UHGV virus genome: UHGV-0142425
Strand: one strand, 5' to 3'
Length of the DNA: 64,000 bases
Source of the DNA: a virus
Positions 1,680 through 51,116 of this stretch are shown piece by piece (positions within the stretch are counted from its first letter, which is position 1; every line of letters starts with the position of its first letter). The notes under the pieces were generated by a model that searched no databases, was not told the origin of the DNA, and saw nothing but the letters and a program-made list of their open reading frames with translations. The translations under genes and the position numbers were made by a program.

Positions 1680-2872
1680 TAATCATCATCCCCGTATAGC
1701 TTGCGGGTAACTTCTTCGTCTTCCTCCTCGTCTTCGTCCAGGTCTTGTTCCAGCCATGGGTCGTTTGATACACCTTCAGTATCAACATCTCCATAACCGC
1801 CTGTATCAACGATATCGGCGATTTCTTCCCTACGCTGCTCAATCCACAATGCGGCATCGGCGCGGCGGTTGGCGGCCCGTTCTCGCGCAACTTTGTCCAG
1901 ATCTTCAAGAGAAGGGCCACCGACGGCTGTTTGCCTTTCCTCATCATCGGTATTGGTCTTCGGAGCACGCAGATCGGCTTTGATTTGCTCCAGCATCAGG
2001 GGCGGCACTTTCCCGCCATGCGCCTCGATGAATTCAGCTGCTTCCAGCACTGACCAGTTATTTTCACGCTTTCGTTCGTATGCCAGCTTAACAATGCCAG
2101 CTTGCCCCATAGATAAAGCGTGCTTTTCCGCCTCCCGGCTTTCTTTTCGATAGTTATTCCGGATGCTGTAAATGGTGTTGATCAGGCTGCTTATCTGCGC
2201 GGAACAGCTGTTTAGCATGCTCGCGATACGGTATTCAGGCGGAGTACCTTCATCATCGGCTTTTTGCTGATCGCGCATTTCCTGCACCAAGCGAATACAC
2301 GTATCCCTGGCGTTCTCCAGCATAAGGAGATGAGAAAGAGACTTTTCAAGAAGAGTGGTTTCCAGAACATCGGCCCCGGACCGACGCAACATAGCGCGCG
2401 CGGCCTTCCGCGCTTCAACGTTATCTATCAGGTAATCGCCAGCTTCAAATTCAAAGCGTTCACCATCATCATCCAGGGTGTCGCGTTCCAGGCGATCACG
2501 TAAGGTCCGGTGGGCGCGGGTGATCACGTCATGATCATCTGAACGATCATTTATGCGCTTATTTTGGCGCTTCGCATTCTCTACTGCGGCACTGACAACG
2601 GCATTAACTCTTTGTTTTTCCGCTATTTCCGCCGCAATGTGATCACCTGAATGTTGATCATTAGAGTGATCAATGATCATGCTTTTTAGTGGCTTCCTGA
2701 CTGGCTTATTTGGCTTGCGGCTGTCCGCTGTCCTGGTGTCTTCTTTGAAGGCACGGAGATAACGACGTGCGGTATTAGGGTTAAGATTAAACTCGGCGGC
2801 ATACTGTGCGATGGTGTAACCACCATCTCGCGCCAGGCGAGCAAAATTCTTCTTGTGATCGTCCCAGGTCAC
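1679..2872 (-). CDS. pacA: Terminase small subunit / pac-recognition protein (P1 PacA-like), 397 aa
   Basis: ORF track; N-terminal HTH-like segment; contains the clustered TGATCA/G hexamer pac site inside its coding sequence. Confidence 0.8.
2493..2680. other. pac: pac packaging site: two clusters of four TGATC(A/G) hexamers, each with a Dam GATC site
   Basis: Hexamers read at 2493, 2521, 2532, 2544 and 2640, 2655, 2667, 2675; architecture matches the P1 pac site inside pacA. Confidence 0.75.
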
Positions 2873-2957
2873 TTATGCTTCCTTTCGTAAAAACTCTTTT
2901 TGACGCGAGGGTAACGAAAGTCACATGTCAAAAGGCCCGGAACGGGCAAGCAATCAA

Positions 2958-3410
2958 TCAGATACGTGCGGATGTGGCATTACCGTAATTACGGTGCTGA
3001 CGGGCCACCTTATTGAAAAGTTGACGCGCCATTACCCAAGGCTGGTGCTCCCGGCGTTCCTTTTCGTCCTGCGTCATATAGAGTTCGTTCTGGAGTTTTT
3101 CATCAAACCGGCGCGGTGCGCGGCTGCGGCGAAAGAATTCAGGGTTCAGAGAGTGGATCTGAAATCTACGTGGGCGTGTACTGTCATCAATCAAAACAGA
3201 CGAATACTTAGACACAGCGATAGCCTTTAAGCGCAGATAAACGTCGCGCTTATCGACATCCAGATGCGGGTATTCCTTTTCAAGGATTGCTGCGAGTTCT
3301 TTCGCTGATAGAAGAGATTTAGTGCGGATCATGTAATCCGCAATCTCATACGATGTTATTCGTGAGTGATTTATTTCCATGAAGTGGCGTCCCTGCCAGT
3401 TAAGTAACAT
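2958..3410 (-). CDS. lpa: Late promoter activator Lpa-like protein (150 aa)
   Basis: Size and position immediately upstream of pacA; C1-operator-like site in its promoter region; by synteny with P1. Confidence 0.5.
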   Translation of the reverse strand: MLLNWQGRHFMEINHSRITSYEIADYMIRTKSLLSAKELAAILEKEYPHLDVDKRDVYLRLKAIAVSKYSSVLIDDSTRPRRFQIHSLNPEFFRRSRAPRRFDEKLQNELYMTQDEKERREHQPWVMARQLFNKVARQHRNYGNATSARI

Positions 3411-5048: not shown

Positions 5049-5429
5049 TCAGGTCTTGGAACCATATAGTTCACGTAGCTTTTCTGCGACTGAAGATACG
5101 GCGATTTCACCAGTTGCAGCCCCTACGGTAAGGTCTACCAGTTCAGGTGAGTCAAATACCTGCACCCCATTACGGCGTAGGAATAGCAGCGCACTGTTTA
5201 GCGCGGTACGCTTATTGGCATCATTGAATATATGCCCTCTCGCAGTAGCCACCAGGTAGGTTGCGGAGACTTCGAAAAGGTCGGTAATCTCTTCGTACAC
5301 AACTCTGGCCTGGACTCTCCCGATAATGGCCTCTGCCCTGCCCGGATCTGACATGCCAGGCAGGCCGCCGTAGCGGTTTATATTCGCATCATGAAGCGCA
5401 ATAAGTTCTTCCGGTGATATATGCCTCAT
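5049..5429 (-). CDS. doc: Doc toxin (Fic-fold kinase), addiction module, 126 aa
   Basis: Protein recognised as P1 Doc; directly downstream of phd with ATGA overlap. Confidence 0.9.
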
Positions 5430-5650
5430 TATCGGTTAACCAGTTCCTTGTTGGTGGAGTCCAGGGTGTCAAACAGGGATGCAAATTCAGCATCCAGCGC
5501 CGCTTTTTTGTAGGCTTCGAAAGTAGCCTTGCTGACAATTACTGCTGGCTCACGGCCTCTGCGGGTGATTTCAACCTCTTCCCCGGCTTCAACATTGTTG
5601 AGCACTTCAGAAAGGTTGCCGCGCGCGGTACGGAAGTTAATGGATTGCAT
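5429..5650 (-). CDS. phd: Phd antitoxin, 73 aa (start at the second Met of the 75-aa ORF)
   Basis: [52 protein letters not shown]... recognised as P1 Phd. Confidence 0.9.
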
Positions 5651-46449: not shown

Positions 46450-46959
46450 ATGGGGCACAATAACACTAAGGGAAACCGTAAATTTATTAAGGGCCGCTAT
46501 ACTGCCAACGCGGCCAAAGGCGAACGACTGGTATCTTCTGAATTCCAGCTCACTTTTGCAGGCTATGAAGATATCAGTGTACTTGTTCGTACGTCGCAAA
46601 TCCCTGAAATGACTCGCGAGGATGTGGAGGACTATGGTCCGAATGGTGTGAAGTTCAACCAGCACGGACCAATTCGAAACTCTGGGGAAATCCAGGTCCA
46701 GTGCGTGGAGACTATCGAAGGCGATATTCTTCAGTTCATTAAGGATCGCATTGCGGCGAAGGACTATGTTGATATCACGATGGCTGCTACCCCTGAATCC
46801 AAATCTTCCGGGGTTAACGCTGTGACAAAAGCTGCTACAACAATTGAAATGTTGGACTGCAAAATCTACAGTGATGCAATCGACTTTAGTACCGAAGATG
46901 TGACTGCCGCTGTGCGCCCGTCACTTCGTATCGTCTACAACTGGATTGAGTGGGATTAA
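46450..46959 (+). CDS. Tail tube protein candidate (T4 gp19-like), 169 aa
   Basis: Size and weak C-terminal resemblance to T4 gp19; follows the sheath candidate. Confidence 0.4.
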   Translation: MGHNNTKGNRKFIKGRYTANAAKGERLVSSEFQLTFAGYEDISVLVRTSQIPEMTREDVEDYGPNGVKFNQHGPIRNSGEIQVQCVETIEGDILQFIKDRIAAKDYVDITMAATPESKSSGVNAVTKAATTIEMLDCKIYSDAIDFSTEDVTAAVRPSLRIVYNWIEWD

Positions 46960-46975: not shown

Positions 46976-47004
46976 TTTAAAGCTCCTTCGGGAGCTTTTT
47001 TATT
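46976..47004 (+). terminator. Rho-independent terminator after the tube gene
   Basis: AAAGCTCC-TTCG-GGAGCTTT followed by TTTTTATTT. Confidence 0.7.
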
Positions 47005-47075
47005 TGGAGAGGAAAGGGTGCATTGAGGATACCTGACACACGAAGAGTGGCGGGGATCTCTCCCCGCCAGGTCTC

Positions 47076-47231
47076 TTACCTTTCAGATTCGTAGGCTGTG
47101 AAGACAGTGACCTCCGTCTGGCCGGTTCGGATTCGTACCTCGCAGAGGTCTTTCCTCGTTACCAGTGCCGTCACAATGACGGTTAAACAGATGACGATCA
47201 GAGCGATTAACACCGCTTTTTGCTGCTTCAT
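47076..47231 (-). CDS. hok: Hok/Gef-family type I toxin, 51 aa (MKQQKAVLIALIVICLTVIVTALVTRKDLCEVRIRTGQTEVTVFTAYESER)
   Basis: Read manually; AGGAGA RBS; Hok/Gef signature ...TRKDLCEVRIRTG...; overlapping mok frame present. Confidence 0.7.
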   Translation of the reverse strand: MKQQKAVLIALIVICLTVIVTALVTRKDLCEVRIRTGQTEVTVFTAYESER

Positions 47232-47289
47232 AGCCTGCTTCTCCTTGACCTTTTGGTCGGTAAGAGGCTAATCTACGTATGCTAAGCAT
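47083..47289 (-). CDS. mok: mok-like overlapping reading frame (68 aa)
   Basis: ORF track frame overlapping hok in another frame, as in hok/mok/sok loci. Confidence 0.4.
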   Translation of the reverse strand: MLSIRRLASYRPKGQGEAGYEAAKSGVNRSDRHLFNRHCDGTGNEERPLRGTNPNRPDGGHCLHSLRI

Positions 47290-47320
47290 AGATACGGCCT
47301 CAGATTAATGTTAAGCGTCT
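47235..47320 (+). ncRNA. sok: Expected position of a Sok-like antisense RNA; boundaries not determined
   Basis: Inference from hok/mok architecture; promoter not mapped. Confidence 0.2.
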
Positions 47321-47412
47321 TGCAGGACGCGTAATGTTATCTGGGGCTTTCTTCTATCTGCTTTTCGGGTAATGCCTGAAGCAGATAGCCTCAAGCACCC
47401 GCAACGATTGTA

Positions 47413-47658
47413 TCAATGTCTGGCTTTTTTTCTATAGAAATCACCTGGAAGGGTGAATATCCACATCAGAAGAAATGTTGCAGCAAACATGATCCCTAAT
47501 GGCCAGACCGCGCCAAAGAAAATCCATACTAAGATCTCCTCTGCTCGTTCTTTGCGGTCGATATCGACAAGCATTTTTCGGCTGATCATGTATACACAGA
47601 AGCCAATACAAACATATCCTGCAAAAGCGATCGCTAACTGTAAAAAATCAGATTGCAT
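47413..47658 (-). CDS. Small membrane protein with two hydrophobic helices, about 81 aa
   Basis: Start at MQSDFLQ with GAGGTCGGAG RBS; ORF track extends to 47739. Confidence 0.4.
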   Translation of the reverse strand: MQSDFLQLAIAFAGYVCIGFCVYMISRKMLVDIDRKERAEEILVWIFFGAVWPLGIMFAATFLLMWIFTLPGDFYRKKARH

Positions 47659-47708
47659 CTCCGACCTCAAACTGAAAACGCCAGGTAACTCCAGATTAGA
47701 GCAATCTA

Positions 47709-48554
47709 TCACCCTCTGAATCCTGCCGGTATACCCCATTGTTCGTTATCTTTATTTTTGGCTAAAACCGCATTAAGAGCTTCGTTTACCGTCATGCAAT
47801 GCGGCAGATTATCGAAGTTTGATACCCCGCCAATATCAGGAGAACGCTTGTTCTTCAGGTAAGCATATTTCCGCGCTGCCGCCTCTACTTTCTGCTTGAA
47901 CTCATGTTTTTGAGCGCGTTTTTTGGATAACCGCAGATTGTCAGCCTTTGCTTTTGCCTCAGCGATCCATGAAGTCAATTTTTTGAGTCTGGTCGTTCCG
48001 GCACCGCCGGAAACTGATCTTTTTGTTTTTTTAACTTGTGACTTCTTATTCTTTATTGCCACGTCATCCTGACAGGGGGAGGGGGTATCATTTTGACATG
48101 GGGGTGTGGATAAAAAATTAAATAAAGCCAATGTCTTAGCGAGAACAGCTTTAACCTTGGTTGCCGCTGAAGAGATCTTTAATTTGCTTTCAATCAGCGC
48201 ATTTTTGGCTTGTTGTGCGAAGGCCAAAAAGGATGGTGTAAACCGGTACAGGTTAGCGCGACGTTCACGGTGATCGCCGATAACAATCTCTACAGACAGA
48301 ATTCCTTTGTTTACAGCTTCACGGAATGCACGAACGACGGTTGATTGGCTATAACCAGTTTCTGCCGCGATCAGGCGGTGAGGCTTGTGAATGAAGTATT
48401 CACTGGTTGTTGCCGCTAGATTTGCACATTGCGACAGGATATGCCCGGCGCTACGGGATAGACCGGAGTGTGTTACAAAGCAGGCCAATTCATAGCCAGA
48501 AAAAGTAAAATCGCTCATCGTTATACAGCTCAGGAAAGTGACTTTAGCCAGCAT
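47709..48554 (-). CDS. repL: Lytic replication initiator RepL, 281 aa
   Basis: Recognised as P1 RepL; downstream of kilA. Confidence 0.8.
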   Translation of the reverse strand: MLAKVTFLSCITMSDFTFSGYELACFVTHSGLSRSAGHILSQCANLAATTSEYFIHKPHRLIAAETGYSQSTVVRAFREAVNKGILSVEIVIGDHRERRANLYRFTPSFLAFAQQAKNALIESKLKISSAATKVKAVLAKTLALFNFLSTPPCQNDTPSPCQDDVAIKNKKSQVKKTKRSVSGGAGTTRLKKLTSWIAEAKAKADNLRLSKKRAQKHEFKQKVEAAARKYAYLKNKRSPDIGGVSNFDNLPHCMTVNEALNAVLAKNKDNEQWGIPAGFRG

Positions 48555-49453: not shown

Positions 49454-49470
49454 AAATTTATTAGAGCAAA
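49454..49470 (-). promoter_or_regulatory. C1 operator (16/17) upstream of kilA-repL
   Basis: AAATTTATTAGAGCAAA. Confidence 0.7.
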
Positions 49471-50809: not shown

Positions 50810-50900
50810 CGGCCTCGTAAGTTGATAAACAACCTGCGACCCGCTGCTAAACAGGTGGCAGGACGTGACGGGGTTAGCAGACTGGCACTTACGAAACCAG
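50810..50900 (-). ncRNA. c4: c4-like antisense repressor RNA region; boundaries approximate
   Basis: Non-coding structured segment immediately upstream of icd; inference from P1 immI. Confidence 0.4.
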
Positions 50901-51116
50901 CAGGCCGAAGCCTCCCCATCACGCCCCACCATAATTCGGGCGTAACGTGGTTTACGGACACAAAAATACCGCAATATCGGAAATCTGCGGTTGTCCGCGT
51001 AAGTATTCAGGCTGCTAAACCCGGTCGCAGAATTTGCTACGACGGCGGAACTATAAGCCTGAACGATTAAAAGGTCAATATGATGCGAAAAGATAGCATT
51101 CGCGACTTAAAAATAC

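Follow-up and report, generated by a model that had tools for sequence, protein, structure and literature searches.

The window analyzed here, a stretch of 64,000 nucleotides from the virus genome UHGV-0142425, is a P1-like phage-plasmid. Its minus strand contains an undamaged type I toxin-antitoxin locus of the hok/mok/sok kind, which extends from the promoter (47434) to the point where the conserved module ends on its 3' side (47016). On the sequence, it is close to certain that this is a complete hok/mok/sok locus of the hokD/hokW subfamily, located in a P1-like plasmid prophage where it replaces pmgF-rlfB-rlfA. By analogy with better-known systems, the locus would most likely act, alongside phd/doc but independently of it, as a second system of post-segregational killing that stabilizes the single-copy plasmid prophage. 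An intact locus and a second post-segregational killing role in the maintenance of the plasmid prophage, taken together, form the explanation that we consider best and hold with good confidence. The family, the mechanism, and the exact arrangement are already known, given that they are in databases and have been mentioned in print. An earlier note on this DNA had proposed a hok/mok/sok-type locus at 47040-47400, and the Pfam, PHROG, and Rfam matches described below, together with a predicted Sok promoter, bear this out; the locus lies where it was placed, but its span is slightly wider, from 47434 to 47016.

The locus occupies a variable slot in a P1-like phage-plasmid

Both flanks of the locus are 95-99% identical to reference P1 (NC_005856), and the gene order around it is that of P1 (gene 21, pmgG, bplB, repL, and kilA), as found in members of Punavirus. 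The tRNA genes, the C4 RNA, and phd/doc confirmed the P1-like identity of the window, in which nine C1 operator-like sites were also found. The features of this setting are as follows:

46450-46959, plus strand: bplB, one flank of the slot, RefSeq name 'tail tube protein'
46979..46998, no strand assigned: bplB terminator hairpin, shared with reference P1 and identical up to 47001
47658..47413, minus strand: 81-aa ORF between hok and repL
48554..47709, minus strand: repL, the other flank
50851-51056, minus strand: C4 antisense RNA with a1/b1 target (Rfam)
5650..5058, minus strand: phd/doc, present in the window
29307-31064, minus strand: four tRNA genes, a P1 landmark

Where reference P1 has 1826 bp containing pmgF, rlfB, and rlfA, the window has 693 bp, which comprise hok/sok and the 81-aa ORF. 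Homology to P1 stops at 47001, just past the T-run of the bplB terminator, and resumes at 47695. The right breakpoint (47695-47705, minus strand) lies within Orlf, a C1 operator that retains its 11-nt core, ATTGCTCTAAT, and whose 3' part reads CTGGAG compared to TATAAC in P1. The slot between the tail tube gene and repL, as the earlier note described it, does have bplB and repL as its flanks, but the locus shares it with the 81-aa ORF. The absence of a hok locus from canonical P1, which the earlier note had put forward, holds for the slot, where the reference carries pmgF-rlfB-rlfA; for the rest of the genome, it draws on general knowledge and on a megablast search of NC_005856 that gave a single place, and no second one, for the locus in that record.

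The 81-aa ORF contains two hydrophobic segments and matches PHROG 3772 (function unassigned) over its full length (E 6e-54), while a comparison with NCBIfam gave no family. Its end overlaps the hok promoter, and it is part of the replacement cassette while lying outside the toxin-antitoxin locus. The ORF was found only in P1-like records, its exact sequence being present on at least 1000 contigs, and it also occurs beside repL without hok in SJ46 (44% identical), RCS47, and 673R5. In these three elements (L084, L086, and L085, respectively), the slot holds a third cargo consisting of a plus-strand ORF of ~170-210 aa and a homolog of the 81-aa ORF, without hok; SJ46 additionally has Lom there, and RCS47 has an IS605-family transposase. 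Given that three cassettes were seen at bplB-repL, the slot has at least three alternative cargos. The substitution at the P1 slot was already noted by Venturini et al. 2019 (PMC6906374), and rlfA-rlfB-pmgF is one of eight variable regions (Zhang et al. 2022, PMC9603915).

We considered that a cassette in this position could act in abortive infection, whereby an invader would shut down host transcription, Sok would decay, and Hok would kill the cell early and so protect sister lysogens. Prophages and phage-plasmids often carry defense cargo in variable slots, of which bplB-repL is one, and the hok/sok system of R1 was reportedly found by Pecota and Wood in 1996 to reduce T4 growth. The R1 effect is modest, however, and no sequence feature of the locus points specifically to defense. 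There are no adjacent defense genes, and neither Hok nor the 81-aa ORF matched any of the PADLOC defense models, which leaves abortive infection an improbable main function for this locus.

The toxin gene and the overlapping mok frame

The two coding frames of the locus are on the minus strand:

47231..47076, minus strand: hok, 51 codons plus stop, SD AAGGAG at 47246..47241, Pfam HOK_GEF
47083..47301, minus strand: mok, SD GAGG at 47301..47298, frame 47289..47083, 68 codons

The hok gene encodes a 51-aa peptide, MKQQKAVLIALIVICLTVIVTALVTRKDLCEVRIRTGQTEVTVFTAYESER, which has the size (~50 aa) and the N-terminal hydrophobic helix of a Hok/Gef-family toxin, and the ribosome-binding site AAGGAG (47246..47241, minus strand) lies 9 nt 5' of the hok AUG. 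The peptide matched Pfam HOK_GEF (PF01848) at 76.6 bits, compared to a cut-off of 22 (E 1e-21), as well as PHROG 251, 'MokW-like host killing' (E 4e-31). It is identical to HokW at 46 of 51 residues (90%), and HokW was toxic in experiments (PMC8621323). The exact peptide is present in NCBI, where it is named HokD. The NCBIfam Hok models scored 50.7, below their strict cut-off of 73, and NCBIfam alone would leave the peptide unnamed; a sequence search of the PDB with Hok found no solved relative. Both the 51-aa Hok/Gef-type peptide and its strong ribosome-binding site had been read in the earlier note, and both stand. That note had also allowed for a peptide without any Hok-family match, whereas the Pfam, PHROG, and HokW matches are all strong.

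For comparison, 80 related loci were gathered from viral contigs, and 64 distinct full-length modules were aligned. The mok AUG of the window is 58 nt upstream of the hok AUG and is thus out of frame with hok, and the mok frame, the overlap of which had been noticed earlier, covers almost all of hok. In hokW the arrangement is different, with mok in frame with hok (57-nt offset, 70-aa product), and this in-frame layout was seen in 46 lambdoid hokW-type loci. A one-base insertion in all 12 P1-type loci leads to the 58-nt offset and a separate mok; the offset and the 68-codon frame are kept in 12/12 P1-type sequences. Across the 64-module alignment, five loci have a mok of 19 codons, and ATA replaces the mok ATG in one. 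The mok-to-hok offset of R1 is, by our count, 58 nt, equal to that of the P1-type loci. No Pfam family was matched by mok or by the neighboring bplB, pmgG, and repL.

The predicted antisense antitoxin and its promoter

Two predicted features on the opposite strand make up the antitoxin:

47245..47274, plus strand: predicted Sok promoter, -35 TTGACC at 47245-47250, 18-nt spacer, -10 TAATCT at 47269-47274
47281..47351, plus strand: predicted Sok antisense RNA, 71 nt by homology, possibly extending to ~47357

Sok was mapped via the alignment from the annotated sokW RNA of phage 933W. The predicted RNA consists of a 15-nt single-stranded 5' tail (GCUAAGCAUAGAUAC), a long terminator-like hairpin, and then UUUCUUCU, with a folding energy of -32.3 kcal/mol (z -5.56), and its sequence can base-pair with the SD and the start codon of mok. 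At 8/12 matches, the Sok promoter was not called by the generic promoter scan; we accepted it solely on account of its position, which corresponds by homology to that of the sokW promoter, one that has been mutated experimentally. The sokW promoter at the same position reads TTGCCT-17-TAACCT, and mutation of its -10 region abolished antitoxin protection (PMC8621323). The predicted promoter of the window is at least as near consensus as this active sokW promoter, the spacer being 18 nt here compared to 17 nt in sokW. The sequence points to a cis-encoded antisense Sok with its own promoter. A decayed remnant lacking a sok promoter, against which the earlier note had cautioned, does not fit this locus, given that TTGACC-18-TAATCT stands at the sokW promoter position.

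A search of Rfam, which had been named as a check, returned an end-to-end match to RF01794 at 47400..47226 on the minus strand, at 114.1 bits compared to a gathering score of 59 (E 3e-25). The Sok hairpin of the window contains a 16-nt insertion relative to the RF01794 consensus. Though it is named 'sok', RF01794 matches the hok-mRNA strand, stops at the hok AUG, and models the hok leader in the open tac/ucb fold. Reading the Sok gene off the strand of the RF01794 match would be an error, given that the genuine antisense RNA is encoded opposite to it (47281-47351).

No stretch of the hokD/hokW module varies more than the one targeted by the Sok 5' tail (alignment columns 106-122, ~47281-47295), for which 17 variants occur among 64 loci and column identity is 0.675, compared to at least 0.9 elsewhere. 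Such variability fits the idea that every locus maintains an antitoxin specificity of its own. The Sok 5' tails of the P1-type loci and of sokW differ at 5 of 15 positions. The tail in the window, GCUAAGCAUAGAUAC, is one base off the other P1-type copies.

The hok mRNA is predicted to adopt a closed and an open form

The elements of the hok transcript, numbered in nt from its predicted 5' end, are as follows:

47407..47434, minus strand: hok promoter-like site, TAGAAA at 47434..47429, 16-nt spacer, TG-extended TACAAT at 47412..47407
47016..47400, minus strand: hok mRNA, 385 nt, full-length conserved module, ends predicted
47389..47400, minus strand: tac, 5' nt 1-12, GGGUGCUUGAGG, pairs with nt 373-385 in the MFE fold
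47354..47388, minus strand: leader hairpin, nt 13-22 with nt 38-47, 10-bp inverted repeat
47343..47349, minus strand: ucb or anti-SD box, AAGCCCC, nt 52-58, covers the mok SD (closed form) and pairs with tac (open form)
47048..47067, minus strand: 3' hairpin GGCGGGGAGAGAUCCCCGCC, GC-rich, after the hok stop, 92% paired among homologs
47016..47028, minus strand: fbi, 3' nt 373-385, CCUCAAUGCACCC, one bulged base

The hok promoter gave 9/12 matches plus the TG in a consensus scan. The predicted transcript start at ~47400 coincides with the start of the Rfam model, homology to lambdoid hok loci starts at 47412 or 47402, and the homology of at least 60 other hok loci ends at exactly 47016. These shared limits suggest that the conserved unit is the transcript itself. 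The true 3' end of the hok mRNA may be either 47016 or the bplB terminator ~40 nt further. A terminator scan of the hok strand past fbi found no clear terminator. The bplB terminator, the sole hairpin downstream of hok, was called on the plus strand only and has a poor U-run on the hok strand; it is possible that it ends the hok transcript in the reverse direction. Across this shared terminator, hok/sok faces the late tail operon.

The 385-nt hok mRNA has a minimum free energy of -155.9 kcal/mol (z -7.78 compared to 100 shuffles), and its MFE and centroid folds are the same; with this z-score and the Rfam match, a chance origin of the features of the locus can be dismissed. Both contain a 12-bp helix between tac and fbi, which is paired in 100% of cells across the 64 homologs with changes only to G-U; free variation in fbi among homologs is confined to the bulged base. 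The full-length hok mRNA is predicted on this basis to be closed by tac and fbi, which is the defining closure of hok mRNAs. The 10-bp inverted repeat that had been noticed in the leader (CUAUCUGCUU at 47388..47379 and AAGCAGAUAG at 47363..47354) proved to be a helix in the predicted fold with two compensatory substitutions: 8 sequences have G-C in place of A-U, and 12 have U-A in place of C-G. Likewise, the 3' hairpin pointed out in that reading is present at 47067..47048, and we presume that it protects the end of the truncated, active hok mRNA. Compensatory changes were also seen in other helices. Across the whole alignment, double-sided changes were found in 95 cells, whereas shuffling gave an expectation of 37, and sliding the partners gave 1 to 14.

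Pairing between nt 54-56 and nt 102-104 in the fold of the full-length RNA covers the mok SD, and the same pairs occur in the Rfam consensus structure. When the 7-bp tac/ucb stem (nt 1-8 with nt 52-58) was imposed on the full-length RNA, the penalty was 11.7 kcal/mol; once the last 28 nt are removed, back to the GC hairpin, this stem lies only 0.4 kcal/mol above the MFE. In its tac/ucb form, the 3'-truncated RNA has an unpaired mok SD and a newly formed hairpin across the mok start, while in a 40-nt nascent RNA, a local hairpin ties up tac. The models therefore predict a switch from closed to open only after 3' truncation, with ucb as the partner to which tac would move. Step by step, the predicted folds match the published folding pathway of hok, for which a tac/fbi/ucb model has been described in R1 hok/sok (PMC9841398). 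A 5' hairpin of the truncated RNA (nt 1-13 with nt 19-34) that had been a candidate for tac/ucb was reassigned as the metastable hairpin in line with that description (PMC9841398).

The same parts make up R1 hok/sok (parB), namely, tac/fbi, ucb, an out-of-frame mok, a Sok RNA antisense to the mok start, and a GC hairpin that follows the stop codon. R1 hok/sok is also found on a low-copy plasmid, the setting in which post-segregational killing makes sense. Its sequence identity to the window locus is much lower, and the leader hairpin loop is shorter in the window; HokW itself is only 44% identical to R1 Hok (PMC8621323). The nearer relative is hokW-sokW of the Stx2 phages 933W and Sp5, which shares 86.5% DNA identity across the whole 385-nt module, identical tac and fbi sequences, and the same positions of the Sok hairpin and promoter. 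It is carried by a temperate phage as well, but by an integrated lambdoid prophage compared to a plasmid prophage here. The hokW-sokW pair is a functional toxin-antitoxin pair that depends partly on RNase III and Hfq (Takada et al. 2021, PMC8621323).

Proposed mechanism and probable role in the plasmid prophage

The mechanism that we propose is taken from the family paradigm and was matched to the locus element by element in silico. A weak constitutive promoter would produce a stable hok mRNA of ~385 nt. Pairing of tac at its 5' end with fbi at its 3' end would lock this mRNA, with the mok ribosome-binding site covered by the anti-SD box. Slow trimming of the 3' end to the GC-rich hairpin would then remove fbi and allow tac to switch to the anti-SD box, and this open form would expose the mok start and the Sok target, with translation of mok being required for that of hok. 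As long as a cell retains the plasmid, the 71-nt Sok, itself short-lived, would bind its target, and the duplex would be destroyed. Once the plasmid is lost, Sok would decay first, and the stored mRNA would be translated into the 51-aa Hok, which would damage the inner membrane so that the cell dies.

We favor a killing role given that it is established for plasmid-borne hok/sok and that the host plasmid is mostly typed as non-mobilizable. The earlier note had suggested a second addiction module in addition to phd/doc, which is fair at the level of sequence, given that phd/doc is present in the window. The two would have the same presumed purpose, the killing of cells that have lost the P1 plasmid, and are unrelated in sequence and mechanism; phd/doc is a type II system, in which the antitoxin is a protein and the toxin belongs to the Fic family. 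Partition and phd/doc are already part of P1-type plasmids, so the extra stabilization provided by hok/sok could be small.

The closest tested relative suggests a different use. The hokW-sokW pair was shown to assist prophage-induced lysis and was not assayed for maintenance (PMC8621323). In that system, sokW RNA was lost on induction, growth arrest was advanced by ~40 min, and Sp5 release was doubled after mitomycin C (PMC8621323). Given the 86.5% DNA identity and 90% peptide identity, hok/sok of the window could mainly serve the lytic cycle, with Sok lost on induction and early membrane damage by Hok leading to faster lysis and more phage release. The position of the locus is compatible with such a use: hok is on the same strand as the kilA-repL operon and directly downstream of it, the C1 operator OrepL is intact (49454-49470), and only a weak terminator-like site (47456..47441) lies between kilA-repL and hok. 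By inference only, polymerases reading through on induction could meet the Sok promoter head-on. On the other hand, P1 is established to have its own holin, antiholin, and endolysin system, and reference P1 and P7 lyse normally without this locus, and we consider it unlikely that the lytic cycle is what the locus mainly serves. Help with lysis would use the same molecular mechanism as plasmid stabilization, and the two could coexist.

In a further version of this idea, which we regard as decidedly doubtful, hok/sok would be wired to the phage switch, and read-through from the C1-repressed kilA-repL operon or from the late tail operon would make Hok a timed lysis helper. Induction could bring transcription into the locus, with the possible effect of shutting off the Sok promoter or upsetting the tac/fbi lock. 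If this were true, the exchange of rlfA-rlfB-pmgF for hok/sok, as seen in the majority of natural P1-like plasmids, would be a functional trade rather than a neutral exchange of cargo.

Post-segregational killing, our preferred reading, presupposes that the locus is active. It could instead be an inactive relic that is carried passively, like several of the chromosomal hok loci of E. coli K-12, and many chromosomal relatives are indeed disrupted. The chromosomal hokD (relF)-type loci share the NCBI name HokD with the peptide of the window, where the locus is complete; the K-12 hokD locus was reportedly described by Pedersen and Gerdes in 1999 as being without the upstream mok/sok part. Disruption also occurs among the P1-type copies, given that the hok 3' hairpin is an insertion hotspot for an IS4-family element. 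In three contigs (L014, at 1680-3016, L017, and L019), an insertion sequence of 1337 bp with a target duplication of ~12 bp, inverted ends (CATAAGCGCTAACTTAAGGG), and an IS4-family (IS186-like) transposase interrupts the hairpin loop GGGGAGAGATCCCC at the equivalent of 47053. The element splits hok from fbi in these 3 of ~19 P1-type viral contigs, which suggests that the locus is dispensable. A matching insertion has been described in the same slot of pSvP1, where IS186B is flanked by the direct repeat GGATCTCTCC (Venturini 2019, PMC6906374). The insertion is absent in the window, however, and the module is at least 99% identical in hundreds of plasmids. A dead relic is very unlikely given that every element is undamaged in the window, including both promoters, tac/fbi, ucb, mok, the hok ORF, Sok, and the 3' hairpin.

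Prevalence of the hok/sok layout

The earlier note implied that a hok locus at this position would be rare, and this did not hold. Of 507 PLSDB plasmids with a near-complete repL, which served as the base set, 262 contain the hok/sok junction (at least 99% identity), most of them non-mobilizable, while 99 contain the reference P1 cassette. No other layout is as common among sequenced P1-like plasmids. The hok/sok layout outnumbers that of reference P1 ~2.6-fold, which makes the reference atypical in this slot. Natural P1-like plasmids spread resistance genes and would usually do so with two unrelated addiction systems, which bears on how difficult they are to cure. Our literature search found no study testing a hok/sok locus in a P1 background, and hok in P1-like elements is mentioned there in passing only. 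Of 5426 complete E. coli genomes, 4739 have relatives of the module; the median copy number is 2, and most copies are chromosomal. The same junction is present at 98.4-99.3% identity in the phage records MH422554 (where the gene is called 'MokW'), MH445380/1, phi456, and Ro157c2YLVW, and the gene label 'hokD: type I toxin-antitoxin system toxin HokD' appears among the PLSDB matches listed.
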